Made by a program: the position numbers and the translations under genes
Assembly (NCBI GenBank): GCA_900128395.1
Contig: LT649300.1
Span: forward strand, 1 to 42,064
Reading direction: 5' to 3'
DNA from: Stramenopiles sp. TOSAG23-2
Taxonomy: Eukaryota
Length of the DNA: 42,064 nucleotides
Notes under the pieces: generated by a model
The model's database searches: none
What the model saw: the letters and a program-made list of their open reading frames with translations, nothing else
Told to the model about the DNA's origin: nothing
In this document: piece after piece, positions 51-24,868 of the stretch
How positions within the stretch are numbered: the stretch's first letter is position 1
Layout: the number at the start of each line of letters is the position of its first letter

Positions 51-3000
51 AGATGGTGACTCATCTGGATCTGCGTTGAACATAAAAGGGCAATATTCAA
101 GTGGTGCGAAGGGTGGTGATCTTATCCTTGAAGGCGGAACCGGGGGTGTACTAGAAGGTGGGGATGTCATGATTACGGCAGGGGAAGGCCAAACGAATGG
201 AGGTGATATTGTTTTTAAGAGTGGGGACGGTAGTGACAACAACGGAGGGACATTTACTATTCATAGTGGAACAGGTATAAGTGGCAATGGGGGCTTCGTT
301 GAATTACAGGCTGGAGCTGGTGAAGGCAGTGCTGGTACCGGAGGTGATTTGACAATTAGATCTGGAAAAGGTGATGGAATTGGGGGCAACATGTTGATAC
401 AAGTTGGCGAATCTGAAGGCGGCGCTGGCGCTTTATTGGAAATTAAAGGCAGTAAAGGATCTACAGATGGCGGATACGTGCAATTTAGTACCGGTGATTG
501 GGGCGATAGTAGCGAACCTGGAAAGTTTAAATTTATTGATGGCAAAAACGATTTTATTATGTCTGAATTTTATCGACAAAAAATTACGGACAAGATCGAT
601 GAGACCCGTTTGAAATATAATTATGCAACACGTTATTTATTAAAATCAAATGAGAAAAAATCTTTCTCGATAGGTGATCATGGAGAATTAGCAAGTGGTA
701 GCAGCCTTGCTACTTATTTAACATTTGATACGGATACGATCAATGTGGAAGATAGTAGAAAAGTCATTTTAGGAGATAGTTTAGAATCCGGTGGGAATGG
801 TTTGGTCGACATTTTAGATATTAACATGCATATTTTAGATGCTCGAAGCCAAATTACAACAATTGAAATGAAACACGATCAAAATGTTGCTTTCAAATTT
901 GTAGATACAGTATTTGAAAGTTTAAATGTAGATAACACCATGGCCCGAGGCAAAAGGGAAGGGGATGAAACATATATGTCTTTCAAAACAAATTATGCAA
1001 ATTTTGCACCCAGTGGAATCAATGTGGATAAATTTCTCAGATTTTCTCATTTTGGTTTTCAAACCAAACCGAAAGTCATAGATGCATTTGGTGTTGGATA
1101 TGGGTATGCTACGATTAGCAATAGAAATGAACGTTGTTATGGCGATTTTGAGGATACAACATATTATATATCTCAATCTGCTGCCGAGAACGCTTGTAAT
1201 TTAGATGAATATTGCGAAGGGTATTCATATTGGATATACAAATCTACTGACTCTTCATGTGGTAGCGAAAATACAATAGTAAGTGATCATACAAATAATT
1301 GTAAAGATGCGGTAAAAATGTTCCACAGTGGGGCAAACTCGGAACTTAGTTGTCATACAGGTAATTGTGGGAATAAGTGTAGAAAAAGTTGCACCGAAGA
1401 ATCCGGAGGATATTGTTATCAAAACTTTCTCAATAATGGGCAGTGCCCAAGCGGTTATAACCCTTATAGCTACCATAATGCACCTTGTGGATGTACTTGT
1501 CATGGTAGCGATAAATGTTCCTACATACGTTCAAAAGTCAATAATGATAATTGGGGGGATTACTATTCCACTAGAATTATATCTATTAATAATCATCACA
1601 ATAAATTTCGAATAGAGACTCCCCAATACATGTGTGGACGCTGGGTTATTGGTTATACAAGAACGTCTGGTTGTACAACTGGGGATCAAAAAGCATACAT
1701 CTCAAAAGGATTATCGCCAAGAATTCCATATGGTACCAATATTGTTAACTTGAAAACATTCAATAGTCATCGTACAGTTACGTTGCCTCTTGTTCAAAAT
1801 GAAATCGATGTCGGTGCGAGTATTACTATACATGTTCAAAGAGATTCACACACCAATCACGTTTTAATATATCCGGGACAAACGCATTCAATCAATGGCG
1901 GCAATTTAAACGAGCCGTTAATAATTACTAATGATGTTGCTGTAACACACTGTACATTTAATAGCGATAATTTGTGGGTTTGTAACAAAGAAGGTTATGA
2001 TGGTGGTTTAAGGACAACGGTTGTTTCTACAGACGTGAATCAACCTGTAAATGATGGTTTGCATTTGCGCCATGAAATGCAAACGGCAAACGTACCTAAT
2101 GATTTTGGAGTAGGTATTGCGTTTGATTTAGAAGACAATAGCGATAATGTGAAAAAACAAGGATCCATTTTCGTTTCATTAGCAGATTCAACTCCAAATG
2201 GGGAAAACAGTGAAATGACTTTTCAAACTAGAACCACACGTAACGGTGAAGTTGCATCTGGCCTAACCGATGCAATGCGTTTATCTTCGACAAAGATTTA
2301 TGTTCCAGAACTAGTAGTTGATGTGATATCAAACGTAGATAACACTAAAACATGTATCACGCCAGATCATCCACATTGCAAGACTCCGGGTACAATGACG
2401 GTGCCTTTTTACTGCGAATATTTCCCCGTTGTTTACAACGAAGCTTGTACTGAAACAAGTGGTGGTAGACAACATTCTAAAAGTAATTGTGAAGGAGCCG
2501 CAGGAACATGGAATGAAGCGTATTGTGAAGGTGCAGTACACTTTACTTCGGAAACTGCTTGTTACATGAGTGGGGAATGGGATGACTCATCATCAACATG
2601 CTATATTAATGTCGATACGCCAATTGACGGTGGAAGGGATGTAGGAGAAACTGAATGTGAAGATGCTGGCTCTTACACGTGGCAACCCGATGCCTGTACA
2701 AATCCTTCGTATACAACGGAAACGGCATGTGAAACTCCTGGTACATGGACACATAGTAGTGTAGCTACACATCCCCAATGTGATTTTGGTGGAAAATGGA
2801 AATTCGATGCAAATTGCCATGTCGCCGAGCATTATGCTAATGCTGCAAGTACATTACTGCCAGATGCAGCTAACATTCCCGCTGTGACAGAAAAATGTTT
2901 TAAAGAAGGTGGGGAAGCTCACGGAAGTTGCACTGCTGCAATCTCAAATAACTGTCATGACGACCAGGGGGCAGCATTACTGGGTGGTAGAGAAACAAAT

Positions 3001-6000
3001 CAAGCCGCATGTATTGCCGCTGGAAAGAATTGGAATGACGAAGATGCAGCGTGTAGTGACACAACTTATACAACAGAGGATGCATGTGAAACACAGGGTA
3101 CTTGGACAGCTTCTAAAACACTGTGTGAAAATACAAAATGGGATAACACAAATTATTGCGTGTACAGACCTTCTGCTGCTGGTATAACTGGTACCGCTAC
3201 AAGTGTCGATGCGGCAAGATCAGCGTGTCAAACGACTGTTGCTGCTACGCCTTCAAATACCATTTTGCATTGTGTTGAATGCAACAAAGTGTTAGCGTCA
3301 TTTGCCCACCATAGTTTGAACACACCATTACAAGATTTTGGCTCTTCGATAGAAATATTATTAGAAGATGATAACAAAGTTGAAAACCTTGCATTTAATT
3401 TAAAAACTAGTATGAATGATGTAACTAATGGTGCCGTAGATTCAAAAATAATGTTTGATGGTCTTGCAGATAATTTGCCAACTACATTGATAACGATGGA
3501 AACGGCGAATGCGATAAGTGAGGAATGCACACCGCCAGCATCTGCGGGAGATGGTGATACAGCATGTGATGTCGTGGCAAACAAGGCAGCAGCCTATGGT
3601 GGTGATATTGCGAAAGCAAAAAGAGCATGTGTGACTACCATATCAAATAGCCCTTACGGGAATGCGAATTGCGTATATACAAAATATGTACCTAGCGGGA
3701 CAAGCATCGTATCCCATCACAAAACAAAAGTTGAAGGTAGATTTGATGTGGAGCATATACTAAACAATGGAAACGACCCGATTGCAAACTTCAAAGCCAA
3801 ATATAATCAAGGTATAGTGCCGAATGGGTATAGCGGTTCATTAAATGTGTTTTTAGATGATAATGAAAACAATGAGCGATTGGTATTTAAAATGAAAACT
3901 AGTTTCACCGACATGATTTATGATTCAACAGATGCTAAAACTGAATTTATAGGAATTGCTAATAATGCCCCAATTACATACTTCACTTTAAACTCTGATG
4001 AAAATAGTAAAATTCAGATAAAAGTTCACAAAGATTTAACTACAGAATTAGATTTACGATTGAAAGGTTCGTTGCAGATGGGGTTTGATGATGCTGGCAA
4101 CGAGGAAAGAGCAGCCTTTAATATACATTCAAACATCTCACCCCCTGCTGTTTGTAGCATCAGTGTCGGGGGGAGAGAAACGGATGAAACGTCTTGTATA
4201 GCAGCTGCTGGCATATGGGGCGGAGCATGTTCGGATAATTCATATACTGATCAACCAACTTGTGAAACAAACACGGAAGAGTGGACGCTACAATGTTCGG
4301 ATAATACATATACAACTGAAGAAGCATGCATTACTCAAGGTGTATGGTTGAATGCAAATTCAAACACATTTTTTCAAGGACTTGTAAATACGCAATTAAA
4401 AAACTTCTTAGAATTCAAAGCTTTGGAAAACGAACATACAATGTTACAATTAGATGCTGAAGAAATGAGCTTAAGTACGAAAGCTTTCCACATAGACACT
4501 TTGCTTAAATTGGATGCAAACGAAACGAACTTATATACAAAAGTTTTTGACATAGATGCTTTGCTTAAATTGGATACAAACGAAATGACTTTAGATACGA
4601 AAGTTGTTCATTTAAACTCGGTTCTCGAAACGCATTTTTACGGAGAACATAATTCCAATTTTTATTTTAAAAATTGTGTTTACACACCATATCGAGCGAG
4701 TGCTGTAGATACTTGTGCTGGTCCCAGTAATAGTGGTAGTTGTTTGATTGCTATTGGTGGAAGGGAAGTTGATCAAATGCAGTGTGAGGCAAGTGTTGGT
4801 ACGTGGAATGTTTGTACGGGCGCTGCTTGTTGCAGTGATGCATCTTCAACAAATAAAGCTACATGTGAAGATGTACCAGCGCAATGGACAGATATGATAT
4901 GTTCTGACGGAACATATACGACTCAAGCATCTTGTATTACTCAAGGAACATGGACTGGTACAGCATGCAGATTAACATCCGGTGGAAGAGAGATTTCTAA
5001 CGCTGCTTGCACTGCGACAGCTGGTGTATGGAGCGGCGGAGCCTGTAATAATGATGCTTATACCACGGAATCAGCTTGTATTACAACAGGATCGTGGAAT
5101 GTTGATACGGCTTGTGCTTCATCCGCAAATACTGTAGATGGTGGCGCAGCATCAATTGATGCAGCACGAGCAGCATGTGAAGCTACGTCTTCAAATAGTG
5201 GTGCCAACGATGGTCCATGTATTTATACACCTGCAGCTGTTGAAATTTTAGAAAGGTGTAGCACATATGAAAACATGGATGCATCCATGCCCGTGGACAC
5301 GAATTGTCATGTAAGCGATAATTATTTTCGTTCATTTGTTGCAATAAGCCAAGATTGTACAGATTACCAAGGTACTTCAGATACCGATTGTACTGCAGCT
5401 AATACTAATAAAACAACATGCGAAGAAGCAGTTGATAGCGTAAATGGATATCCATGTAAATATATTTCTGGTGTAGCGAGCATTTCTCCAACTGCTGTAT
5501 CAGAAACTGATGCTAAAATATCATGCGAAACTACTGCCTCCAACACGACAATATATATCACAGATGATGTTAATGTAATTGCAAAGTTTCATAACGAAAA
5601 TTCTTTCGAAATAAAAGAAGGTTTTGGTAGTGTTATGCAATTCTTTTTAAAGAATAATGAAAAGAAAAATGTACCGGCAATGCAAATTTCAACTTCTTTA
5701 ACCGATATTAGAAATGAATCAAATTCAAAATTTTCTATTTTGGGTCTTACAAATGGAACAGCAACAGACTTCATATCCATGGAGTCAAACAAAATCGGAC
5801 AAAGAGTGATGTATGTCAATGGCAATATGAGTGTTCATGGCCCTTTGAGGCCAATGTCGTTGTTAGTTTATTCGACAACATTCGTTCCAGGGGCTGACAA
5901 TGTTGAATTGAATACGAATGATTTTACATACTTTATCATAGGGGCGCATTCAGGACCTGTTCACGTGTCATTGTCTGGGGGGTTAGATGGACAAGTTATT

Positions 6001-9000
6001 TATGTAAAAAATGCAGGGCTTGCTCCAACTTCTGGCAAAGTAATCGGCATGAATTCCATCATTCAATACGTACACTCTAACAACGAATGGGTTAATGTTA
6101 CTGCAAGCGTCAGCGCAGTTTCAATGGATGAAGTCCACGAAAAGAACCCCGATAGTGGAGTTACGGTAGATGGAGTTTTAATGAAAGATGGAAGCGTGCT
6201 TTTGAAATTAAAGAGTCATAAATATGTATATCATGGAGCTGATGATCACGATGGACATATGATCTTTAAATTTCTTGACGAAGAAAACAAAACATCCAAC
6301 GTTTCACAAGTTTCGCCTATGTCAATATTCAACGTCGCAGGCAATTGCAATGTCAACATTGCCAGTAGTAAATGTGAAAGAGTTGAAGGGAAAAATTGGA
6401 AAGAATGTATAAATTTAAATACATCTGAAATAAGCTATTTCATGTCTTGGATAAAAGACGGAGAAGCAATAATACGCAATGAATTGAACGAAGATGTACA
6501 TTCATGTACTTGTCAAAGTACATGTAATAAATTGGTTGGGGAATGGCAATGTGATAATTTATTTCCTGTTTGTAGTAGCTTACACTATACAACTGAAACT
6601 GCATGTGTCACACAAGGTACGTGGGATGGTTCATGTGATATTAGTTCTGGTGGTCGAGAGATTGATGAAGCGAAGTGTATTGCAGCAGTTGGTATATGGG
6701 GGGATTGTAGTCTTGGGGCATGTTGTACAGATGGTTCATCAACCTCTGAGGTAGATTGCAACACCGCATCTGCTACATGGAACGAAAATATATGTTCCAA
6801 TTCTGATTATACAACTGAAACAGCTTGCATAACTCAAGGAGTTTGGTCCGGTAGTTGTGACATATCTGAGGGTGGTCGAGAGATTGATGAAGCGAATTGT
6901 ATTGCATCTGCTTCAACGTGGAATGCGCAGAGTACCTTTAAAATTACATCAAACAATTTTACAATTGTACCAAACGCTTTCTGTGACAATAGCAATTACT
7001 TTACCAAAACAGCATGTGAAGATGCGACATTTGACTGGAAGGATAGACCAAATGGCTGGGCTTCATTTGTTACTAATGAGAAACTTAAACATTGTTTCGA
7101 TGAAAATGATATCACTGATTTAAATGGTGTTCTGTTTGAAACATATTCCCATACTGAGAATACATATGAAACTTCTGCCAAGTTGACGTCATCAGAATTA
7201 GTATTACCAGGGGATATGTTTTTTACTGGGGATGACGCAAAATTAATTCACACTGGTCCAAACAACTTGTTGATTGAGACGGTAGATGGCACTCATGTTA
7301 CGATCGAAGCGGTGAATTTTAATTCGAAATCTATAAGCAATCTTAATGATCTTAAATTCTCCAATTTTATAGGTTGCAACAATCCTGCTTATACTACTTC
7401 CTCAACATGTACAGGAGCCGGGTCAACTTGGGGCACAATTGATGGTATAATAGGGACAGAAAATAAACCAAATGCAATTTCATTTAGTAGCGATGGTATT
7501 ATTACATTTGCAAATAATCTTAAAATTCCGGATAATGGAACAATTGGATCTATAAGTGCACCAAATGCATATACAATTGATAATACTGGTAAATCAACCT
7601 TATTAATTGATAATGGTGTAAATAATGACATAACTACTGTACTTGAGATAGTTCATTCAACAAGTGGTACAGCATCAAACGGAATTGGAAGTAGTATATC
7701 ATTTTTACTAGATAATGGTGGATCGTGTCAAAATTCTGCTTATGCAACAGAAACCGCATGTGAGACACTAGGTACGTGGGAAAATAATGGACCATGCGAT
7801 ATATCTGAGGGTGGTCGAGAGATTAATGAAGCGAAGTGTATTGCAGCAGTTGGTATATGGGGGGATTGTAGTTCTGGGGCATGTTGTACAGATGGTTCAT
7901 CAACCTCTGAGGTAGATTGCAACACCGCATCTGCTACATGGAACGAAAATATATGTTCCAATTCTGATTATACAACTGAAACAGCTTGCATAACTCAAGG
8001 AGTTTGGTCCGGTAGTTGTGACATATCTGAGGGTGGTCGAGGGGTTGGCGAAACGGAATGTCAAGCCTCTGCTTCTACATGGATTACAGCACCAGTTGAA
8101 TTTGGAAGTGTAAGCGTTCAATCAACCAATGTAACATCAGGTACAGAAGCAAGTAAAATGATATTTAATACCTATACAAATGGTATATCATCTATTGGTT
8201 TAGAAATTACATCAACTGATATCAAAGCAAGTGGAAATATAATCATTGGTGATAATGAAAATACTATTGGATCTATAAGTGCACCAAATGCATATACAAT
8301 TGATAATACTGGTAAATCAACATTATTAATTGATAATGGCGTAAATAATGACATAACTACTGTACTTGAGATAGTTCATTCAACAAGTGGTACAGCATCA
8401 AATGGAATTGGAAGTAGTATATCATTTTTACTAGATAATGATAATGACGCCATAACGGAGTTTGGAAGTGTAAGCGTTCAATCAACCAATGTAACATCAG
8501 GTACAGAAGCAAGTAAAATGATATTTAATACCTATACAAATGGTATATCATCTATTGGTTTAGAAATTACGTCTGCAAATGTTGCAACAAACGCAAATTT
8601 TAAAATTTCATCGCATGATAATGGTGCCAATGGATTGTATTTAGGCACTGTTGCAGTAATAGCATTAGCATCAGAATTAAATTATTTAAGTGGTATTACA
8701 TTGGGTACATCAGAACCAAGTAAAGTCGTTACAGCAGATTCAAATGGTTTAGTAACATTAACAAAGGGTGCTGTTGTCGGTGCAAATGGTAATTTTGAAA
8801 TTTCATCGCATGATAATGGTGCCAATGGATTGTATTTAGGCACTGTTGCAGTAACAGCATTAGCATCAGAATTAAATTATTTAAGTGGTATTACATTGGG
8901 TACATCAGAACCAAGTAAAGTCGTTACAGCAGATTCAAATGGTTTAGTAACATTAACAAAGGGTGCTGTTGTCGGTGCAAATGGTAATTTTGAAATTTCA

Positions 9001-9918
9001 TCGCATGATAATGGTGCCAATGGATTGTATTTAGGCACTGTTGCAGTAACAGCATTAGCATCAGAATTAAATTATTTAAGTGGTATTACATTGGGTACAT
9101 CAGAACCAAGTAAAGTCGTTACAGCAGATGCGAATGGTGAGATGAAGCTGAATGGATTTGTAAAACTTCAAAAGAAAATTGGGTTAGCTAACACAGCTTT
9201 GACTGGCAGTACTCAAGAAATTGACCCCAATGTTGCTGATAGCACTGCACATTATACTCTGGATGGAAACGATGATTCTGTACCAATAAAAAAAGGTGCT
9301 TATCTTGGACAAATGATTTTTATTACCAACGTTGGTACTCATACAGCCTCAGTTAATATTGAGATCTCTGGAGAATATCTCCCGCGAATTACCAACATAG
9401 CTTATTTATCAACTGCTATTTTTATTTATACTGTTGGCCATGATGATGTAGAGGCGGGTAGTTCAAATATAGCAGATAAACATATGTGGAGCAGAATAGA
9501 TGCTGAGTCTAATATCACTTTGAATAATGGACGACGTCGTCTGCTGCAGATGACTACTGACGATGATGATGACGATAATATTGAAAAAATTGAAAACATA
9601 GGAAATAATAGCCATCATCGAAGGCATTTGTTATCAACAAGTACGTCATATTTAAAGGAGAAAAATACAAAAGAAACTTTATTGAAACAAATCAATGAAT
9701 TAAACGATTCCAACACGGATTTAAACAACAAATTAAAATTAATGGAAGAGGCAAGTCGAACAATGCGTTTTAATATTACGTTAGGCTTTTTATTTTTAAG
9801 TTTGTGTTTGATTGTATTAAATTATTATAACAATAAAAGGAACAAAGAATTGATTGAAAGAATGGATGCCGCAGGTTTATTAATATCCCCGCCGCGGATA
9901 GATGGTTTTAAAAATTGA
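25..9918 (+). CDS. Giant (>3,280 aa, 5'-incomplete) Cys-rich type I membrane/surface protein with Gly-rich repeats and phage tail-fibre-like modules
   Basis: Uninterrupted 9.9-kb ORF. Gly-rich GGxxxxxxGxG repeats (~52-520). Ten GGR(E/D/Q/G)-x-C...W Cys modules. Seven copies of a scaffold domain. 195-bp tandem repeat at 8596-9129. RRRLL and HRRHLL motifs, coiled coil (~9650-9765), one TM helix (ITLGFLFLSLCLIVL, ~9775-9820) and a short tail. The ATG at 25 lies within the inverted chimeric segment, so the true start is missing. Confidence 0.9.
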   Translation: MLPPIPSPLDGDSSGSALNIKGQYSSGAKGGDLILEGGTGGVLEGGDVMITAGEGQTNGGDIVFKSGDGSDNNGGTFTIHSGTGISGNGGFVELQAGAGEGSAGTGGDLTIRSGKGDGIGGNMLIQVGESEGGAGALLEIKGSKGSTDGGYVQFSTGDWGDSSEPGKFKFIDGKNDFIMSEFYRQKITDKIDETRLKYNYATRYLLKSNEKKSFSIGDHGELASGSSLATYLTFDTDTINVEDSRKVILGDSLESGGNGLVDILDINMHILDARSQITTIEMKHDQNVAFKFVDTVFESLNVDNTMARGKREGDETYMSFKTNYANFAPSGINVDKFLRFSHFGFQTKPKVIDAFGVGYGYATISNRNERCYGDFEDTTYYISQSAAENACNLDEYCEGYSYWIYKSTDSSCGSENTIVSDHTNNCKDAVKMFHSGANSELSCHTGNCGNKCRKSCTEESGGYCYQNFLNNGQCPSGYNPYSYHNAPCGCTCHGSDKCSYIRSKVNNDNWGDYYSTRIISINNHHNKFRIETPQYMCGRWVIGYTRTSGCTTGDQKAYISKGLSPRIPYGTNIVNLKTFNSHRTVTLPLVQNEIDVGASITIHVQRDSHTNHVLIYPGQTHSINGGNLNEPLIITNDVAVTHCTFNSDNLWVCNKEGYDGGLRTTVVSTDVNQPVNDGLHLRHEMQTANVPNDFGVGIAFDLEDNSDNVKKQGSIFVSLADSTPNGENSEMTFQTRTTRNGEVASGLTDAMRLSSTKIYVPELVVDVISNVDNTKTCITPDHPHCKTPGTMTVPFYCEYFPVVYNEACTETSGGRQHSKSNCEGAAGTWNEAYCEGAVHFTSETACYMSGEWDDSSSTCYINVDTPIDGGRDVGETECEDAGSYTWQPDACTNPSYTTETACETPGTWTHSSVATHPQCDFGGKWKFDANCHVAEHYANAASTLLPDAANIPAVTEKCFKEGGEAHGSCTAAISNNCHDDQGAALLGGRETNQAACIAAGKNWNDEDAACSDTTYTTEDACETQGTWTASKTLCENTKWDNTNYCVYRPSAAGITGTATSVDAARSACQTTVAATPSNTILHCVECNKVLASFAHHSLNTPLQDFGSSIEILLEDDNKVENLAFNLKTSMNDVTNGAVDSKIMFDGLADNLPTTLITMETANAISEECTPPASAGDGDTACDVVANKAAAYGGDIAKAKRACVTTISNSPYGNANCVYTKYVPSGTSIVSHHKTKVEGRFDVEHILNNGNDPIANFKAKYNQGIVPNGYSGSLNVFLDDNENNERLVFKMKTSFTDMIYDSTDAKTEFIGIANNAPITYFTLNSDENSKIQIKVHKDLTTELDLRLKGSLQMGFDDAGNEERAAFNIHSNISPPAVCSISVGGRETDETSCIAAAGIWGGACSDNSYTDQPTCETNTEEWTLQCSDNTYTTEEACITQGVWLNANSNTFFQGLVNTQLKNFLEFKALENEHTMLQLDAEEMSLSTKAFHIDTLLKLDANETNLYTKVFDIDALLKLDTNEMTLDTKVVHLNSVLETHFYGEHNSNFYFKNCVYTPYRASAVDTCAGPSNSGSCLIAIGGREVDQMQCEASVGTWNVCTGAACCSDASSTNKATCEDVPAQWTDMICSDGTYTTQASCITQGTWTGTACRLTSGGREISNAACTATAGVWSGGACNNDAYTTESACITTGSWNVDTACASSANTVDGGAASIDAARAACEATSSNSGANDGPCIYTPAAVEILERCSTYENMDASMPVDTNCHVSDNYFRSFVAISQDCTDYQGTSDTDCTAANTNKTTCEEAVDSVNGYPCKYISGVASISPTAVSETDAKISCETTASNTTIYITDDVNVIAKFHNENSFEIKEGFGSVMQFFLKNNEKKNVPAMQISTSLTDIRNESNSKFSILGLTNGTATDFISMESNKIGQRVMYVNGNMSVHGPLRPMSLLVYSTTFVPGADNVELNTNDFTYFIIGAHSGPVHVSLSGGLDGQVIYVKNAGLAPTSGKVIGMNSIIQYVHSNNEWVNVTASVSAVSMDEVHEKNPDSGVTVDGVLMKDGSVLLKLKSHKYVYHGADDHDGHMIFKFLDEENKTSNVSQVSPMSIFNVAGNCNVNIASSKCERVEGKNWKECINLNTSEISYFMSWIKDGEAIIRNELNEDVHSCTCQSTCNKLVGEWQCDNLFPVCSSLHYTTETACVTQGTWDGSCDISSGGREIDEAKCIAAVGIWGDCSLGACCTDGSSTSEVDCNTASATWNENICSNSDYTTETACITQGVWSGSCDISEGGREIDEANCIASASTWNAQSTFKITSNNFTIVPNAFCDNSNYFTKTACEDATFDWKDRPNGWASFVTNEKLKHCFDENDITDLNGVLFETYSHTENTYETSAKLTSSELVLPGDMFFTGDDAKLIHTGPNNLLIETVDGTHVTIEAVNFNSKSISNLNDLKFSNFIGCNNPAYTTSSTCTGAGSTWGTIDGIIGTENKPNAISFSSDGIITFANNLKIPDNGTIGSISAPNAYTIDNTGKSTLLIDNGVNNDITTVLEIVHSTSGTASNGIGSSISFLLDNGGSCQNSAYATETACETLGTWENNGPCDISEGGREINEAKCIAAVGIWGDCSSGACCTDGSSTSEVDCNTASATWNENICSNSDYTTETACITQGVWSGSCDISEGGRGVGETECQASASTWITAPVEFGSVSVQSTNVTSGTEASKMIFNTYTNGISSIGLEITSTDIKASGNIIIGDNENTIGSISAPNAYTIDNTGKSTLLIDNGVNNDITTVLEIVHSTSGTASNGIGSSISFLLDNDNDAITEFGSVSVQSTNVTSGTEASKMIFNTYTNGISSIGLEITSANVATNANFKISSHDNGANGLYLGTVAVIALASELNYLSGITLGTSEPSKVVTADSNGLVTLTKGAVVGANGNFEISSHDNGANGLYLGTVAVTALASELNYLSGITLGTSEPSKVVTADSNGLVTLTKGAVVGANGNFEISSHDNGANGLYLGTVAVTALASELNYLSGITLGTSEPSKVVTADANGEMKLNGFVKLQKKIGLANTALTGSTQEIDPNVADSTAHYTLDGNDDSVPIKKGAYLGQMIFITNVGTHTASVNIEISGEYLPRITNIAYLSTAIFIYTVGHDDVEAGSSNIADKHMWSRIDAESNITLNNGRRRLLQMTTDDDDDDNIEKIENIGNNSHHRRHLLSTSTSYLKEKNTKETLLKQINELNDSNTDLNNKLKLMEEASRTMRFNITLGFLFLSLCLIVLNYYNNKRNKELIERMDAAGLLISPPRIDGFKN
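4444..4623 (+). repeat. 60-bp (20-aa) coding tandem repeat x3
   Basis: LQLDAEEMSLSTKAFHIDTL / LKLDANETNLYTKVFDIDAL / LKLDTNEMTLDTKVVHLNSV. Confidence 0.85.
6649..8041 (+). repeat. Near-identical internal duplication, 6649-6880 = 7810-8041 (Cys module)
   Basis: About 232 bp at offset 1161 with only a few substitutions (attgat/attaat, agtctt/agttct). Confidence 0.9.
7543..8569 (+). repeat. Near-identical internal duplications, 7543-7717 = 8266-8440 and 8101-8209 = 8461-8569 (scaffold domain)
   Basis: Direct sequence comparison; offsets are 723 and 360. Confidence 0.9.
8596..9129 (+). repeat. 195-bp (65-aa) coding tandem repeat, ~2.7 copies
   Basis: tcgcatgataatggtgccaat recurs at 8611, 8806 and 9001. 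Unit: ISSHDNGANGLYLGTVAVTALASELNYLSGITLGTSEPSKVVTADSNG... Confidence 0.95.
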
Positions 9919-11242: not shown

Positions 11243-12480
11243 ATGAGTGCTGCAACACCACAACAACCAAAGTTAAAACGTTCACGATCTGATATTGTCA
11301 AAAATAATAATAATCAACAAATATTTCTTGGTGGACTTAAAGAAGCATTAGTTCTAGTTCAAAATGAAGCTAGCAAGCTTGCCGATACAGGATTATCCGC
11401 ATTTAGTTTCTTTTATGGATTCAGTGTCTGTCTATTAACAGCATATTTAATTGGTGCTTTCCCAGAAAGTGTTTGGTTAGTATATGGCTTACAAGGTATA
11501 TTAATTTTAGGAAATCGTTTATTGGTTGATATTCCAAGAACCAATCCTACAAATTGGAAATGCTTTCTTGACTTTTGTTGGATAGCTAATATTGTATTTG
11601 CTTTGTTGGCATTTTATATGTTCTTACAAGTTATAGATCGAAAATATTTTGAAGGGTCTATGCTTCCAATTAGTTCAGTGACAAATAAAGCTCCTTGGAT
11701 TGGCCGTGTAGTCATTTTATTTGCATGTGGTCCATTCGCTTTTTCTGTATTAGGTTTAAGAAATAAATTAGGTAAGTAAAAATTCTATTTCCCTTATATA
11801 CATGCAAAAAGCATCGTCATTAATAACACATCATCATTATATTTCATATGCTTCGCTCCATAGTATTGCATGATATTCGCGCGTTTTCTTCCACATTTAT
11901 TCATTTATGGCCTATTATTATTACATTAGCATTTAGAACTCATCCAGAGCAAGTGTTATTGACATATCCAGGATTATTTGATGCATTGACTGGAATTAAA
12001 GATTCTAGCGTCGATGCAGGATTTTTTCATTTAATGCAACTTGGTTGTTTGTCTTACTTCGTATGGTGGATACCATACACAATTTGGATGGTATTGCATG
12101 GAAGATTTCAAAATATTGAAGGTACTGGTGCAAATACTGTTTATATAGATGCAGTTCAAAAAAATAAAATTGTTCGTGTCATTTTAGGAATAGATGGTTC
12201 CACGTATTTAGAAATTGCTGAAAGTGCTAGTAAGCTTGGTCCTGTTTTGAAATATATGTTTATACATGCTATATTTTGCAATATGACGTTTATGTGGGGA
12301 ATATTATGTTATAAATATGTCCAATTACATTTTGTATTTTGTATTATTTGTTTATCAAGTGCATTGTACAATGCATCAATGCATTATGCTTACTTAATGA
12401 CGAATCTACCATCAACTACGATAGTAAAAGAGATTGAAAAAAGACGTAAGAGCAGTGATATTGATTTTAAGAAAGATTAA
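11243..12480 (+). CDS. GPC1: Glycerophosphocholine acyltransferase (GPC1/GPCAT, DUF2838 family); 2 exons, 11243-11771 and 11864-12480, ~381 aa
   Basis: Multi-TM protein with FLDFCWIAN and, across the splice, RNKL-VLHDIRAFSSTFIH, matching the GPC1 motifs (DxCYxxN; RNSLVFHSxDKxTSxFIH). A GTAAGT donor at 11772 and a TAG acceptor at 11861-11863 join the two ORFs in frame. Confidence 0.8.
11772..11863 (+). other. Spliceosomal intron (92 bp, GT-AG)
   Basis: G|GTAAGT ... CCATAG|TA. Removal gives a GTA (Val) codon and restores the conserved motif. Confidence 0.85.
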
Positions 12481-15863: not shown

Positions 15864-18257
15864 ATGAAAACAAAACAATATAAACAACATGAGGAGGAGG
15901 ATACCTCTCTTGATAATATGATAAATGATAAAAATAAAACTCCACATGTACGTAATATAAAAGACGTGGGTGAAGGTTTAACACATGTTTTATCGGGAGC
16001 ACTTACTACAGAAAAGGCATTGTTACAAGAAGCAATAAAATACGAACAAAAAATAAGATACAAATTTGCAACGGAATTGAATAAAAGAATGGAAATTACA
16101 CAAGATATTGAACATTCATTGAAACCTACATTTTCACTTAGTTTATTTATACGTATCTTTATTTATCATTTATTTTTTCCATTAACAATACCAATTGTTA
16201 TATTGGTTGAAGGCTTGCACCTTGCAACTGCAATGCAATTTTTACTGTGCCTGGCGCCAATAACGTGTTTTAAGCAAATCTTCAAGGGTAATTTCACTTT
16301 GTTGATTTCTCAATATTTTGTTGCACCATTATCTACAGTAATACTAATTTTTTACCTTACATTATTATTTTATTTTAACAGATTTCCTTGCTTGTCTATC
16401 ACCAATGTGAATATTATGGCTGCACTTGGTTATCACATTTTGCGTATACTTATGATTAGTCTTAAATATGCAATGGCACCAAATCATGAAGTAGCTGCTG
16501 TCTTGAAAAAGCCATTTCATACTACTGCAATAATGTGGAGTAATTGGCACTTAGGCGCATTCATTGGTACCGATATTAATGGTTTTAGGCATCATATTCA
16601 CAAAATTTGTCTAAGGCATGGTATTGATTCACCATTACATGAAAATAAAAGATTTGGTAGGCAAGGATTTAATTTTACGTTTGAATGTTCATTAGACAAA
16701 GACAATCAACATTTGTTTAAAAAGAATAGTGCATTGTATACATTTTTTATCAAAAGAAACAAGGAAGGCCAACGTATATTACCTCTATCTACTTTACCCT
16801 TAGAAGAGAGAAAGAAGTTACCTGTTGAAATGGTTAAAATCATACAACAATATTATTGTATGGTAACGAAACTGAATGAACATGATGAACAAGATTACAA
16901 TGAATTTATTAATTATTTTTCAATTGAAATTTTGTCAAAAAGTAAAAATAATGGTATAAAAAACATTGAAGACTCGATCGTTCATCTACGTGTCGATGTA
17001 AGAGAATTATTGGTTCGTGCTATAAATAAAAAAACATATAGATTGAAATATAGTTCTACAATACTTTGGTGCGTTGCAATTGTTCAAAGTTTAATTCCAT
17101 GGGTAATAGCCATTTGTACGAATCCAAATGGTTTTGGTGATTATAACGCAGCAAAAATCGGTCGGGAAGCATATCAAAATTTCATGGCAAAAAGTAATGC
17201 AAATGGAAATTCAACGTCATCATCCTACGCTTCAATATCAAATTATGATTGTGCACGATTCAATAGTAGTAGCTTTCCTGTTATTGAAGGCGTGAAATAT
17301 TCGATTGCCGGTGAAAACCCTTTTTGGCAAGGTGCAACTGTTTTTATGACCATATCTAGTACCTTTTTACACCTGTTTTATGCCTATGTTATATACACCT
17401 GGTTAACTATTGCCATTGCAGACTCTAAACGACGCCACGACACTATGAAGTTGCTAGATGATTTTATTAAAAAAAGATATTTTTATGAAGGGGAATATAT
17501 CACTGTCAATGGGAATAATGACAATGGCATCGAGAAGATGGAAGGTAACGATGATGAAGGAAGGACCAAAAGCCAAAATTTCGATATGATAACAACAGGA
17601 AATGATGCTTCTGCTGATGGTGTCATTGCTGTGGAGGAAGATGATAAAAAATTGTTATGCGAAAAATTTACTGATATTGTTACTAGCAAGGTAAATGTGA
17701 AATGTACTAAACCACTTTTACTATTAGATTCACCGGAAAATGTATATAACTTTTGTAAAGCACGAAAACTTTTAAAAGAGGTAGGAATGATGTATCATGT
17801 TAGAATGCAAGCACTTGCATTTTTTCTACTAGTAGGTTTCTTCGTTTGTATCATTGGCATGGTATACGTAAGCATAATTTTAAATTTTGGAATCAGTCCT
17901 GTATTAAAAGCAACTGCAACATTGTTGTTTATGTTTGGTACAGGAGGTGTTTTGGAAATGGTGCGTCAAGGTGGTAATGCAAATTATGAAATTTCTCGTT
18001 GCTTAAGTCATATTGATGATCAATGCATTAACTTGTTTGAAAAGAAAGAAAAGGCTGGTGAGTTGCACTTGGAGCGGACAGAAGCAACGGCATTTGCTAT
18101 TGGTGCATGTAGAGATGAATTGAGAGTGGAGTGGCAACGACATCCAATGCGAATATTCTTTTTACCAGCCGGTGCAATTGTGTATAGAGTGATTTTTACG
18201 TTGATGTTTTTATTTTTAGGTTTTATTGTGAGAGATTATTATATGGACAGCCATTAA
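15864..18257 (+). CDS. Multi-pass membrane protein, PHTF/7TM-ion-channel-like C-terminal half
   Basis: 797-aa ORF with about 9-10 hydrophobic segments. IAIADSKRRHDTMKLL, LDSPENVYNFCKARKLLK and the terminal HPMRIFFLPAGAIVYRVIF resemble PHTF motifs. The CDS is solid; the family call is tentative. Confidence 0.6.
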   Translation: MKTKQYKQHEEEDTSLDNMINDKNKTPHVRNIKDVGEGLTHVLSGALTTEKALLQEAIKYEQKIRYKFATELNKRMEITQDIEHSLKPTFSLSLFIRIFIYHLFFPLTIPIVILVEGLHLATAMQFLLCLAPITCFKQIFKGNFTLLISQYFVAPLSTVILIFYLTLLFYFNRFPCLSITNVNIMAALGYHILRILMISLKYAMAPNHEVAAVLKKPFHTTAIMWSNWHLGAFIGTDINGFRHHIHKICLRHGIDSPLHENKRFGRQGFNFTFECSLDKDNQHLFKKNSALYTFFIKRNKEGQRILPLSTLPLEERKKLPVEMVKIIQQYYCMVTKLNEHDEQDYNEFINYFSIEILSKSKNNGIKNIEDSIVHLRVDVRELLVRAINKKTYRLKYSSTILWCVAIVQSLIPWVIAICTNPNGFGDYNAAKIGREAYQNFMAKSNANGNSTSSSYASISNYDCARFNSSSFPVIEGVKYSIAGENPFWQGATVFMTISSTFLHLFYAYVIYTWLTIAIADSKRRHDTMKLLDDFIKKRYFYEGEYITVNGNNDNGIEKMEGNDDEGRTKSQNFDMITTGNDASADGVIAVEEDDKKLLCEKFTDIVTSKVNVKCTKPLLLLDSPENVYNFCKARKLLKEVGMMYHVRMQALAFFLLVGFFVCIIGMVYVSIILNFGISPVLKATATLLFMFGTGGVLEMVRQGGNANYEISRCLSHIDDQCINLFEKKEKAGELHLERTEATAFAIGACRDELRVEWQRHPMRIFFLPAGAIVYRVIFTLMFLFLGFIVRDYYMDSH

Positions 18258-22135: not shown

Positions 22136-24868
22136 TTATTCTTCTACCAGAAACATTTTTTGTTTCTCTTCTACAACATCTGTTTCAACCTCTACAACTT
22201 TCTCCACCACATCTTGCTCTTCCTCCACCTTTTCATCTTTTACAATTATTATGGAGGAGGAAGATACATTTAATTCATCATCTTCCTCCTCCTCCTCGTC
22301 ATCATCATCTAAACCACCACTATTTCTCATATTATAATCAAACGCTTTCATCAATGCAATTTTCCATTCACGTTGAATACAATTCACGGCATATATTCTA
22401 GCTCGTCGTAGTTCTTTTTGCTTTGTAGCAAGATTTCGAGCATATTCTTGCGCTTTACGATTTTGAGAATTGGGTGAAACTTGAGCAGATTCTTTAGCTT
22501 GTTTTCTTTTCATTTCATTAACTCGTTTTTGTGCCTTTACTTTCTCTTTATCCGCGTCATATTCTTTTCTAGGTGTTCTTGGCGTAGACAATCCATTTTC
22601 ATCATCAGTGGATGATGATTTAGCTTTGATAATCCTATAACCGTCCTCTTTTAATTTTTCTAAACCGGTATCTAACGATCGTCGCTTCGGTTTATTCTTT
22701 ATTTTTTTTTCATATATTTCTTCTTCCGTTGGTAATTCCTGTTTTTTGAAAAATTTGATTTCAAATCCTTTTTCTTTCAATTGATTCAAACCAGTGTCTA
22801 ATTTTTTAGATTCCTTTTTTTCCTTCAACTTCTTTTCATAATAAGATTCATCTACTTGATCTATATACGATGACATGTAATTTGCCGCTTTAACTTGTTT
22901 TGCGACTACATTTGTTCTTGCTTTAATATTTCTTTTTTTTTTCATCGCTTCATTAATTTCGTTAGATATTCTTTCATTGTTTTTGCTCATATCGATAATT
23001 TTAGTCTTTTTCAATAACAATGATGATGATTTGGACGCCGGTGGATTTGGTGGAATAGCACACGTCGAGGAAATATTGAGCAGATTAGACTGTTGTTTAC
23101 CCTTTTTATTCTCAACTACTGTTTTCTTTTTTTTCACTTTCAATGCTTTTACTCTCTTCTTCGCCATTCTTTTCACTTTCTTCCTTTTTTTCTTTTTTAC
23201 TTTTTTTTTAATAACACCAGTAACTACAAATTCCATTGGGCTTCCTTCAATATCTCCTTCATCATAATCATCTTTTTCACCATTGCTGCAGCTACTATTC
23301 CCATCATCATTACTACTATCTTCATTACTATCACGGCTGCTATTATTTTTACTCGTTGATGTTGTGCTATTACTATCTTCATCCTTCTCTGATTCCGATG
23401 ATGATGATGATGGTATTGGTAATGTTGGAATTTTAGATTCTGTAAATTTATTGAGATCTCTTAACACAGCTGCATGAAAATCCTCCGTATCACAAGAAGA
23501 TGTAACTTCACTACTAGTATGTATAGTATCATTTGATCTTTTATCATTATTATTGCTTTTTGCAATTGGTATATGCTTGCTAGGTACATTAACGAAATTT
23601 GTCATATTATTATTATTAAGAAAACCTTGTATTGATAATTTCGGTTTACTATTAGTGACATTGCTATTACTATTATCATTATTATTATTATTGTTATCCC
23701 GATTCATCATATTAGTTTCAATACCATTAGATGATGATGGGGCAGACGATGGAAATTTCATGTTGGAATATGATGATTGTGTTTCTCCGTTTATAATAGT
23801 AGTGGAATGTTGTTGTTTTAAGCATGGTGGCGTAATGCTTTTTCTTGGTACTACTGGTATTTTACCACCTGAGTTACTACTGTTGTTGATATTACTGCTA
23901 CTATTACTTCTGCTTGGATACGTCGAGTTCAATTGTTGTTGTTGTTGTTGTTTTTGTTTTAATAATAAAAATTGTTTATGCTGTAATTCTTTTTGTTCTT
24001 TCTCATATTGTTGTTGTTGCATTATTAATTTTTGCATTGCAGCTTCTTGATTTTTTACGATATTTTTATTACTATTATTATTAGCGATGGATGATGATGA
24101 AGAAGAAGAAGAAGATGATAGCACATGTCGACTATTTATATGTTTAGCATTGTTATTGTTTCTAGGTAATGCATAATTCGATGATCCATTCAATGTTTTA
24201 TGCATTAGACTTGGGCTACCAAATGACCCAAAAGTTTGTCGACTATTATTCATATGAATATAACTCGTATGATTATTAGTATTTTGTTGTTGTTGTTGTA
24301 GTTGTTGAATTGATCGACCAGATTGTAGTCTATTTTTTGACCATACTATATTTCTATTATTATTGTTGTTGATGTTGGCGTTGATATATGAACGATTGGT
24401 ATTATTTTTTGAATAGAAATTATTTGGTTTTTTTTGGTTGTGAATTGTTGAAGAAAAATTGAGCCCATTACCATGGTTGTTCCTATGCTTATAATTTGCA
24501 GTTATTTTATTATTATTGTTTCTCATAAATTGGTTTACATTTGTTTTATTGCTTGGTAATGAATAATCCAATCTATTTTGTACTTTTGGTACATGAATTT
24601 TAGCTTTTCCAGCAAATTGCAAATATGAGCGATTGGATTGATACTGCCTCTTCCTTGTGGCAGCTTGAGCTTTCATTTTGTCTGTTACATAATCGGTATG
24701 CCTAAAAAAATTTGCTCCATTTAATGCTAAGTTTGATGTCTGTTGTTGTTGTTGGAGATGCTTGTTTAATAAACGTTTTCTATTTACATGAATATTTTGA
24801 TGTTGTGGTAAGGTATTCCATTTATCATTTGGATTCAATGTGCTATATACAGATGGGTGATGCCTCAT
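22136..24868 (-). CDS. Large low-complexity (N/Q/S/K-rich) protein with a C-terminal SVBP-like RARIYAVN motif
   Basis: 910-aa ORF with typical codon usage, mostly disordered, with a Lys-rich NLS-like tract. Confidence 0.75.
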   Translation of the reverse strand: MRHHPSVYSTLNPNDKWNTLPQHQNIHVNRKRLLNKHLQQQQQTSNLALNGANFFRHTDYVTDKMKAQAATRKRQYQSNRSYLQFAGKAKIHVPKVQNRLDYSLPSNKTNVNQFMRNNNNKITANYKHRNNHGNGLNFSSTIHNQKKPNNFYSKNNTNRSYINANINNNNNRNIVWSKNRLQSGRSIQQLQQQQQNTNNHTSYIHMNNSRQTFGSFGSPSLMHKTLNGSSNYALPRNNNNAKHINSRHVLSSSSSSSSSSIANNNSNKNIVKNQEAAMQKLIMQQQQYEKEQKELQHKQFLLLKQKQQQQQQLNSTYPSRSNSSSNINNSSNSGGKIPVVPRKSITPPCLKQQHSTTIINGETQSSYSNMKFPSSAPSSSNGIETNMMNRDNNNNNNDNSNSNVTNSKPKLSIQGFLNNNNMTNFVNVPSKHIPIAKSNNNDKRSNDTIHTSSEVTSSCDTEDFHAAVLRDLNKFTESKIPTLPIPSSSSSESEKDEDSNSTTSTSKNNSSRDSNEDSSNDDGNSSCSNGEKDDYDEGDIEGSPMEFVVTGVIKKKVKKKKRKKVKRMAKKRVKALKVKKKKTVVENKKGKQQSNLLNISSTCAIPPNPPASKSSSLLLKKTKIIDMSKNNERISNEINEAMKKKRNIKARTNVVAKQVKAANYMSSYIDQVDESYYEKKLKEKKESKKLDTGLNQLKEKGFEIKFFKKQELPTEEEIYEKKIKNKPKRRSLDTGLEKLKEDGYRIIKAKSSSTDDENGLSTPRTPRKEYDADKEKVKAQKRVNEMKRKQAKESAQVSPNSQNRKAQEYARNLATKQKELRRARIYAVNCIQREWKIALMKAFDYNMRNSGGLDDDDEEEEEDDELNVSSSSIIIVKDEKVEEEQDVVEKVVEVETDVVEEKQKMFLVEE

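Follow-up and report, generated by a model that had tools for sequence, protein, structure and literature searches.

Nested domains and chimeric fibers have both been described. One survey places domain insertions in 20% of multidomain proteins and counts 169 families that occur exclusively as inserts (PMC13114784), and Bd2439 and Bd1334 are reported as chimeric fiber proteins of Bdellovibrio bacteriovorus (PMC10769870). Here we analyze a cysteine (Cys)-rich array nested in a repeated scaffold domain of a giant gene in Stramenopiles sp. TOSAG23-2 (assembly GCA_900128395.1, contig LT649300.1, positions 1 to 42,064 of the forward strand; this whole stretch of 42,064 nucleotides (nt) is referred to as the window). 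The gene is an open reading frame (ORF) whose product, P0001, contains two adjacent, nearly identical scaffold copies that differ at one loop, which is filled by a cassette of Cys units in copy 1 (cassette E) and empty in copy 2. Domain insertion as such is already well known, and this case adds to the record of nested domains and concerted evolution: the nested insertion is probably old, and it probably owes its fresh look to intragenic gene conversion.

As in described nested-domain architectures, a self-contained module sits in a loop of the host and leaves both host halves recognizable. Unlike those architectures, the insert is an array of ~20-amino-acid (aa) two-Cys units without a Pfam or PDB sequence match, the host is a fiber repeat, and the filled and empty copies stand in tandem within one gene. 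The locus also resembles intragenic conversion in repeat-rich surface proteins, in that sharp tracts of near-identity lie inside older, diverged paralogous repeats; it differs in that conversion is read here from the pattern itself and that a 363-nt length difference marks the exact end of the tracts, which allows filled and empty states to persist side by side. Peptidase_S74 is the intramolecular chaperone of endosialidases and tail fibers, and homologs of the scaffold lie just upstream of it in three library proteins; a Foldseek search also links the scaffold to the T5 L-shaped tail fiber (4uw7 and 4uw8, TM-scores (TMq) of 0.53 to 0.57). Unlike the Peptidase_S74 fibers, P0001 has no detected Peptidase_S74 domain, ends in a hydrophobic anchor and a short tail, and has eukaryote-type gene neighbors. 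The Bdellovibrio fibers give the best structural matches to a model of the empty scaffold (8onf and 8oml, E = 0.02 to 0.16, TMq of 0.55 to 0.59) and are likewise modular and chimeric, but they are bacterial and share 11 to 19% identity with the scaffold in the structural alignment. To our knowledge, they carry no nested arrays of Cys units.

Filled and Empty Copies of the Scaffold Domain

Repeats were located with a repeat finder and self-BLASTN, and the coordinates of all features are collected in Table 1. Compared base by base, copies 1 and 2 agree in two blocks on either side of the loop, with 174 of 178 nt identical between 7540-7717 and 8263-8440 and 114 of 116 between 8098-8213 and 8458-8573, much as a model reading the letters alone (the original prediction) had described them. 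Between the blocks, copy 1 has 381 nt encoding 127 aa (aa 2573-2699, positions 7717-8097), where copy 2 has 18 nt encoding DNDAIT (8440-8457).

A hidden Markov model (HMM) of the scaffold, built from the in-gene copies, identifies six clear copies in P0001 (aa 657-768, 1072-1178, 1238-1338, 1837-1940, a split copy at 2517-2578 and 2699-2745, and 2758-2869). The split copy is copy 1, which is matched in two pieces (model positions 1-58 at aa 2517-2578 and 58-104 at aa 2699-2745), and a host domain that is continuous in its homologs is thus divided into two recognizable halves, as expected of a nested domain insertion. In alignment A4, a short, acidic, Asn-rich loop occupies this site in 13 scaffold rows (copy 2, four in-gene paralogs, P0003, P0009, P0039, P0106, P0151, P0102, P0084, and P0072), and a cassette is present in only two, copy 1 and the fragment P0011. 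Unsplit relatives whose loop is equally long are found at 43% identity (P0039 and P0106). The domain therefore has the short loop as its ground state, with the cassette as a derived, nested insertion, a result that bears out the earlier reading of an in-frame Cys module placed in a host loop.

An AlphaFold2 monomer model of copy 2 (24-row alignment; predicted local distance difference test score, pLDDT, 72.7 on average and 85 to 91 over residues 50-115) has strands at residues 54-62 (GSSISFLLD) and 68-82 (ITEFGSVSVQSTNVT) on either side of the turn NDNDA (residues 63-67). The insertion point is, in this model, a β-hairpin turn and a surface loop of the host fold, and the DNDAIT replaced by the cassette in copy 1 takes in that turn together with the two residues that open the following strand. 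The filled copy could not be modeled reliably (pLDDT, 52.9).

The region is crowded with near-identical repeats of 116 to 356 nt, and a collapsed or chimeric assembly could in principle have produced either the filled or the empty arrangement, an outcome that the original prediction had named as its own refutation. We consider such an artifact very improbable. The reading frame is uninterrupted over 9.9 kilobases (kb), and all 10 of the repeat pairs listed by self-BLASTN have offsets divisible by 3. P0003, which is 97% identical and comes from a different source, runs from the right half of copy 1 through all of copy 2, DNDAIT included, into the first part of the 65-aa repeat that follows, and hence covers both the copy 1-copy 2 junction and the empty loop. 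The filled right junction is present in P0011, and P0004 confirms the left part of cassette D, the upstream paralog of cassette E.

It is scarcely credible that the insert is removed before the protein matures, whether by splicing of an in-frame intron or in the manner of an intein. The genome does have spliceosomal introns (one of 92 nt lies at 11772-11863), but the insert keeps its pattern of Cys, Trp, and Gly, shares 53 to 58% protein identity with P0011, and matches the unit consensus. It therefore evolves as coding sequence, and the intron and intein readings were rejected on this conservation. Inteins carry a terminal His-Asn; read directly, the insert starts with GGSC and ends with TAPV, immediately before the E of the scaffold, and has no such terminus.

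Age of the Insertion and Signs of Gene Conversion

Most of the insert had been described as a near-exact copy of 6649-6880, and 229 of 232 nt (98.7%) are indeed identical between that segment and 7810-8041, which makes up 61% of the insert. Across cassettes D and E as a whole (paired by self-BLASTN over 6586-6922 and 7741-8083), the alignment of 357 columns contains 44 mismatches, and identity changes stepwise, from 71% in the first 56 nt and 59% in 22 nt to 98.7% in the 232-nt core and 62% in 50 nt. The longest identical run is 167 nt between D and E and 110 nt in the scaffold blocks, lengths that were reached in 0 of 20,000 shuffles of the mismatch positions in either case. Near-identity so sharply bounded within diverged cassette paralogs suggests a gene-conversion tract, since pasting of a whole cassette would give uniform identity.

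The two regions of near-identity also differ in the kind of change they have accumulated. All six differences within the scaffold blocks fall at synonymous third positions, and the three in the cassette core are all nonsynonymous, with no synonymous change; this pattern points to homogenizing events of different ages, and both scaffold copies look constrained. Beyond positions 8213 and 8573, the copies remain homologous in protein (the HMM matches extend to aa 2745 and aa 2869), while their DNA is heavily mismatched and the 3' 37 to 49 nt are diverged, so a simple recent duplication does not account for the tandem copies. Within the cassettes, we also noted that positions 6712-6713 make a codon Leu (CTT) in D where E has Ser (TCT), and that P0004, which covers D, has Ser. 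The Ser in P0004 is possibly a polymorphism shared by paralogous cassettes, of the kind that conversion would produce.

P0011, a 202-aa fragment with 58% identity, aligns without gaps over 104 aa, from mid-cassette via ASTWITETP-EFGS into the right half of the scaffold, and its match to the scaffold HMM starts at model position 59, immediately after the cassette. The cassette-to-scaffold junction is shared and must therefore long predate the 1 to 2% DNA divergence seen within the gene. Over the 26 residues past the junction, P0011 and P0039 agree with each other at 18, slightly more than with the copies in the window (17 and 15). This closeness would fit a filled-plus-empty pair in another lineage if both fragments stem from one organism.

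The borders of the insert had been proposed as a place to look for target-site duplications, and neither a target-site duplication nor a terminal inverted repeat is present at 7717/8097, where a mobile cassette would be expected to have them. A transposon reading was rejected for this reason, with neither direct nor inverted repeats at the insert borders. The sole 8-nt repeat, TTGGAAGT, is internal to the scaffold: one copy precedes the left junction by 25 nt, and the other follows the right junction by 5 nt.

The original prediction inferred recently active copy and paste, in which a cassette copied from 6649-6880 would have been inserted into copy 1 at the loop, once an empty scaffold had recently been duplicated. 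Scaffold blocks that are 98% identical right up to the edges of the insert, together with a core 98.7% identical to 6649-6880, are what such an event would leave, and the nesting of units in other scaffolds (described below) indicates that the family does undergo insertions. Near-identity, however, covers only 232 of the 381 nt, the remainder being homologous to cassette D at 59 to 71%; a relative at 58% identity already has the junction; the insert is without target-site duplication or terminal inverted repeat; and within the window the module is confined to the giant gene. Recent pasting is, on balance, rather unlikely, and neither a recent event at 7717-8097 nor a dedicated paste mechanism operating today is supported.

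Recent tandem duplication of a filled scaffold, followed by deletion of the cassette from copy 2, would also account for two tandem copies with 98% identity in two blocks and for an insert that is ancestral. The loop of copy 2 (DNDNDAIT), however, resembles in length and character the loops of 12 other scaffold rows, some at ~43% identity, which a deletion scar would not recreate; it is therefore not such a scar. Identity is in addition uneven over the unit, given the diverged 3' end noted above. This history, which the original prediction had listed among its possible refutations, is correct in taking the insert as ancestral, but the empty loop looks ancestral as well, and we judge deletion from copy 2 to be quite improbable.

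An old nested insertion overprinted by intragenic gene conversion, and thus by concerted evolution, is the history that we consider probable. A 127-aa array of five two-Cys units would have taken the place of six residues at a β-hairpin turn before the split from the relative with 58% protein identity, and the empty copy 2 would have kept the ancestral short loop. Tracts of nonreciprocal recombination (gene conversion) of ~116 to 232 nt would have homogenized two sets of regions within the gene. One would comprise the scaffold halves of copies 1 and 2, made alike as far as the borders of the 363-nt length difference, and the other, homogenized more recently, the insert core and its counterpart in the paralogous cassette that lies 1.16 kb upstream. 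In such a case, gene conversion acting inside an old insertion and on its surroundings can produce the signature of a fresh one, which calls for caution in interpreting filled and empty sites in repeat-rich genes.

Several points weigh against this history. P0011 and P0039 are single short fragments that could be paralogs and not orthologs. P0011 displays the right junction only, and the left junction (LLDN-GGSC) is without independent support. The unconverted 3' tail of the cassette does not discriminate, with P0011 identical to E at 12 of 18 residues and to D at 10 of 18; because the tail is barely nearer to E than to D, orthology rests on the continuation into the scaffold. Homogenization of the scaffold needs either two tracts or a single one that skips the 363-nt heterology, and conversion as the process is inferred from the pattern. 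A full-length ortholog was found among 0 of 2473 candidates of 1817 to 5784 aa (E ≤ 0.001), and a search among shorter proteins returned only 3 fragments among 8000 candidates. On the structural side, the Foldseek E values are weak (0.02 to 0.4) and the model of the filled copy is poor.

Cysteine Units and Their Nesting in Other Proteins

The cassettes are built of ~20-aa units with two Cys each, which fall into a YTTE type (C-x4-Y-T-T-E-x-A-C-x3-G-x-W) and a GGRE type (C-x3-5-GGRE-x5-C-x5-W); regular expressions find 12 of the former and 8 of the latter in P0001. The two Cys of a unit are presumably disulfide bonded. The module is not restricted to the scaffold host, given that cassettes C and D lie beyond the scaffold domains and that units occur in other proteins; the fragment P0023 is a close match to cassette C. 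In a limited literature search, in Pfam, and in PDB, we found no prior description of the YTTE/GGRE module. Pfam matches to three cassettes at a relaxed E value were far below the cut-offs (best E, 0.046 to 3.2), a PDB profile search with the cassette gave 0 matches at E ≤ 10, a protein Atlas search with the module gave no usable match, and no cassette had a significant match to the curated profile of an established Cys-rich extracellular repeat such as EGF, EB, or TSP1. One degenerate pattern, run against prokaryote genomes of 185,579 species, returned 1 matching stretch and 0 loci, which gives no usable sign of the module in bacteria or archaea and is weak evidence of its absence there.

A six-frame scan of the window places the YTTE/GGRE units in the giant gene only, the four other matches being off-frame chance hits. 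Beyond the window, the last 1199 aa of P0001 were searched with HMMER against 1.84 billion representative proteins, yielding 258 matches at E ≤ 1e-3 (56 at E ≤ 1e-10 and 8 at E ≤ 1e-30), the best 150 of which were listed; the unit consensus is seen in 8 of these 150. Units of YTTE/GGRE type are also present in P0016, P0099, P0130, P0135, P0152, and P0153, and a word-indexed search with cassette alignment A3, covering longer proteins, found 2 proteins among 7997 candidates. A search for the module in unrelated genes had been suggested with the original prediction, and its outcome is divided: within the window the module is limited to the giant gene, and elsewhere it occurs in other library proteins such as P0152 and P0016.

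These two proteins also bear on whether nesting in permissive loops is a general property of the units, as had been proposed. In P0152 (1337 aa), seven YT-type and seven GGR-type units (aa 248-589) break a ~214-aa super-repeat between AWKITG and SSGTILQVDT, and the sister repeats at aa 27 and aa 800 are unbroken (WKVTDGASGT and WKVTDGASSE). In P0016 (2136 aa), a 139-aa repeat within aa 1884-2022 has a single YT unit after GDVVLG, which repeats of 98 and 113 aa are without, and a second array appears by eye to sit at the "FD..DG" turn of a repeat. P0153, another Cys-rich protein, has GGR units in tandem and YT units in tandem. With units in the loops of two other scaffold types besides copy 1, module insertion into permissive turns is a real evolutionary habit of the family, and the proposal is upheld in this respect.

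Other instances within the giant gene are less clear-cut. The predicted split of a fourth scaffold copy is present as read, with AAFNIHSNIS before and NSNTFFQGL after 4141-4356, but scaffold homology there is faint, with a weak score of 6.9 bits after in silico excision versus 3.0 + 0.2 bits intact. This faint signal suggests a degenerate scaffold copy, probably split by 4141-4356 at a loop other than the one used in copy 1. Minimal units had also been said to interrupt other regions; isolated units do exist at 6982-7038 and 7375-7431, but homologs span 7375-7431 with non-Cys residues of similar length, so that the notion of an interruption is not sustained.

These comparisons document an unannotated family of ~20-aa two-Cys units that is repeatedly nested at turns of three different fiber scaffolds. 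It is possible, though doubtful, that the YTTE/GGRE units form an undescribed, insert-specialized family that has colonized hairpin turns of at least three unrelated fiber scaffolds, with conversion swapping segments among cassettes, and that they amount to a natural loop display that diversifies the sides of giant fibers. The sites counted toward repeated colonization are copy 1, perhaps 4141-4356, P0152, and P0016 (one clear site plus a possible second), and in some lineages insertion might be going on even now. Should the units bind ligands, proteins of this kind would act as modular adhesins, with a specificity that recombination can re-deal.

Fiber Relatives and the Giant Gene

The scaffold HMM matches 38 of the 150 best-listed library proteins, and Peptidase_S74 was found in 6 of the 15 library matches that were scanned against Pfam. 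In P0008, P0035, and P0038, the scaffold match stops 4 to 7 residues upstream of Peptidase_S74, and the scaffold thus resembles the module that precedes this chaperone in tail-fiber-like proteins. Peptidase_S74 (PF13884) itself was not detected in P0001, whose C-terminal 248 aa have sub-threshold Pfam matches only, and we therefore call the protein tail-fiber-like without assigning it to the Peptidase_S74 fiber family. The top PDB matches of the copy 2 model in Foldseek were the C-terminal domains of the Bdellovibrio fibers Bd2439 and Bd1334 and the T5 L-shaped tail fiber; because these matches (8onf, 8oml, and 4uw7) have weak E values (0.02 to 0.4; TMq, 0.55 to 0.59), they are taken as consistent with the link to fibers drawn from sequence. 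Three tandem 65-aa repeats downstream of copy 2 are the part of the query most often matched among the listed library matches, and they also have a weak match (E = 6e-4; 58 aa aligned at 48% identity) to a "putative fiber protein" from a Roseobacter phage. The backbone of the protein would accordingly be made from repeat modules related to phage and bacterial tail-fiber proteins, with the ~110-aa β domain, present in six clear copies, as one such module. The fibers would presumably assemble as trimers, with cassettes displayed on the fiber side in a putative adhesion or recognition role.

Table 1 Features of the giant gene (coordinates are window positions)
Feature	Coordinates	Strand	Remarks
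Giant ORF P0001	1..9918	+	5'-open; 3305 aa; fiber-like extracellular; hydrophobic stretch near C terminus
Scaffold paralog, unsplit, short loop	1969..2304	+	Scaffold HMM, alignment A4
Cys cluster A	2446..3108	+	GGR-type and YTTE-type units alternate
Scaffold paralog, unsplit, short loop	3214..3534	+	Scaffold HMM, alignment A4
Scaffold paralog, unsplit, short loop	3712..4014	+	Scaffold HMM, alignment A4
Cassette B (GGRE unit, C..C..W unit, YTTE unit)	4141..4356	+	Inside probable degenerate scaffold copy, different loop from copy 1
Cassette C, older paralog	4741..5100	+	Internal unit order shared with other cassettes; not inside scaffold domain
Scaffold paralog, unsplit, short loop	5509..5820	+	Scaffold HMM, alignment A4
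Cassette D, paralogous	6571..6927	+	Five-unit order as in E
Putative conversion tract, upstream partner	6649..6880	+	229/232 to 7810-8041
Isolated YTTE-like unit CDNSNYFTKTACEDATFDW	6982..7038	+	Regular expression
Isolated YTTE-like unit CNNPAYTTSSTCTGAGSTW	7375..7431	+	Regular expression; not a clear insertion relative to homologs
Scaffold copy 1 (filled)	7531..8250	+	Halves: left to 7716, right from 8098
Left high-identity block of copy 1	7540..7717	+	Partner 8263-8440; 4 differences, all synonymous third-codon positions
Cassette E (127-aa nested insert)	7717..8097	+	Unit order YTTE, GGRE, CxxGAC-C...C...W, YTTE, GGRE
Putative conversion tract, partner within insert	7810..8041	+	3 differences, 2 codons, nonsynonymous
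Right high-identity block of copy 1	8098..8213	+	Partner 8458-8573; 2 differences, both synonymous
Scaffold copy 2 (empty)	8251..8607	+	Loop DNDAIT at 8440-8457
Three tandem 195-nt (65-aa) fiber repeats, ELNYLSGITLGTSEPSKVVTAD...	8588..9172	+	First two copies 97-98% identical
Hydrophobic stretch ITLGFLFLSLCLIVLNYY	9775..9828	+	Followed by 29-aa tail; read from sequence

The giant ORF encodes a giant, probably C-terminally anchored, extracellular fiber-like protein of a compact, AT-rich eukaryote, and the locus documents a membrane-anchored eukaryotic protein of tail-fiber-like modules. P0001 matches 0 Pfam families at E ≤ 0.01. The hydrophobic stretch at 9775-9828 is probably membrane spanning, as read from the sequence, and this fits the surface location that had been proposed for the protein. 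The gene is apparently intron-free; the intron at 11772-11863 (GTAAGT...AG) establishes by coordinate arithmetic that spliceosomal introns are present in the genome, fusing ORFs 11243-11779 and 11848-12480 in frame (phase 1) into a gene with a DUF2838 match, and the 9.9-kb giant ORF needs none.

Beyond the scaffold and cassettes, the N-terminal end of the visible ORF (aa 20-170, positions 60-510) consists of Gly-rich degenerate repeats (GGDLILEGGTGG, NGGDIVFKSGDG, and NGGTFTIHSGTG) without a Pfam match, which give the impression, and only that, of a β-helix. A separate Cys-dense region at aa 400-520 (1200-1560) has 12 Cys in aa 401-500, with a spacing unlike that of the YTTE/GGRE units. P0002, a fragment with 98% identity, is without 41 aa (123 nt) of the window at 9439-9561, between two GATGAT(G) repeats; an intron was rejected because the borders are not GT-AG, and the gap looks like an in-frame indel polymorphism in a juxtamembrane stalk. 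A 60-nt tandem repeat (~2.6 copies, 79% matches) lies at 4448-4627, and together with the 195-nt repeats it is a further sign of repeat homogenization and expansion in the gene.

The remainder of the window is AT-rich, with long, widely spaced ORFs and a guanine-plus-cytosine content of 0.29 to 0.41 per 2-kb window, highest in the first 8 kb. ORFs with Pfam matches belong to families typical of eukaryotes, including MINDY-3/4 deubiquitinase, FUN14, GH31 glucosidase, WD40, an arginine-methyltransferase C-terminal subdomain plus a GYF domain, ankyrin repeats, and an EamA transporter. ARAGORN found no tRNA genes in the window. The ORFs at 22136-24868 (− strand, 910 aa) and 15864-18257 (+ strand, 797 aa) match no Pfam family, and AT skew is strong (−0.29) at 22 to 24 kb of the window.

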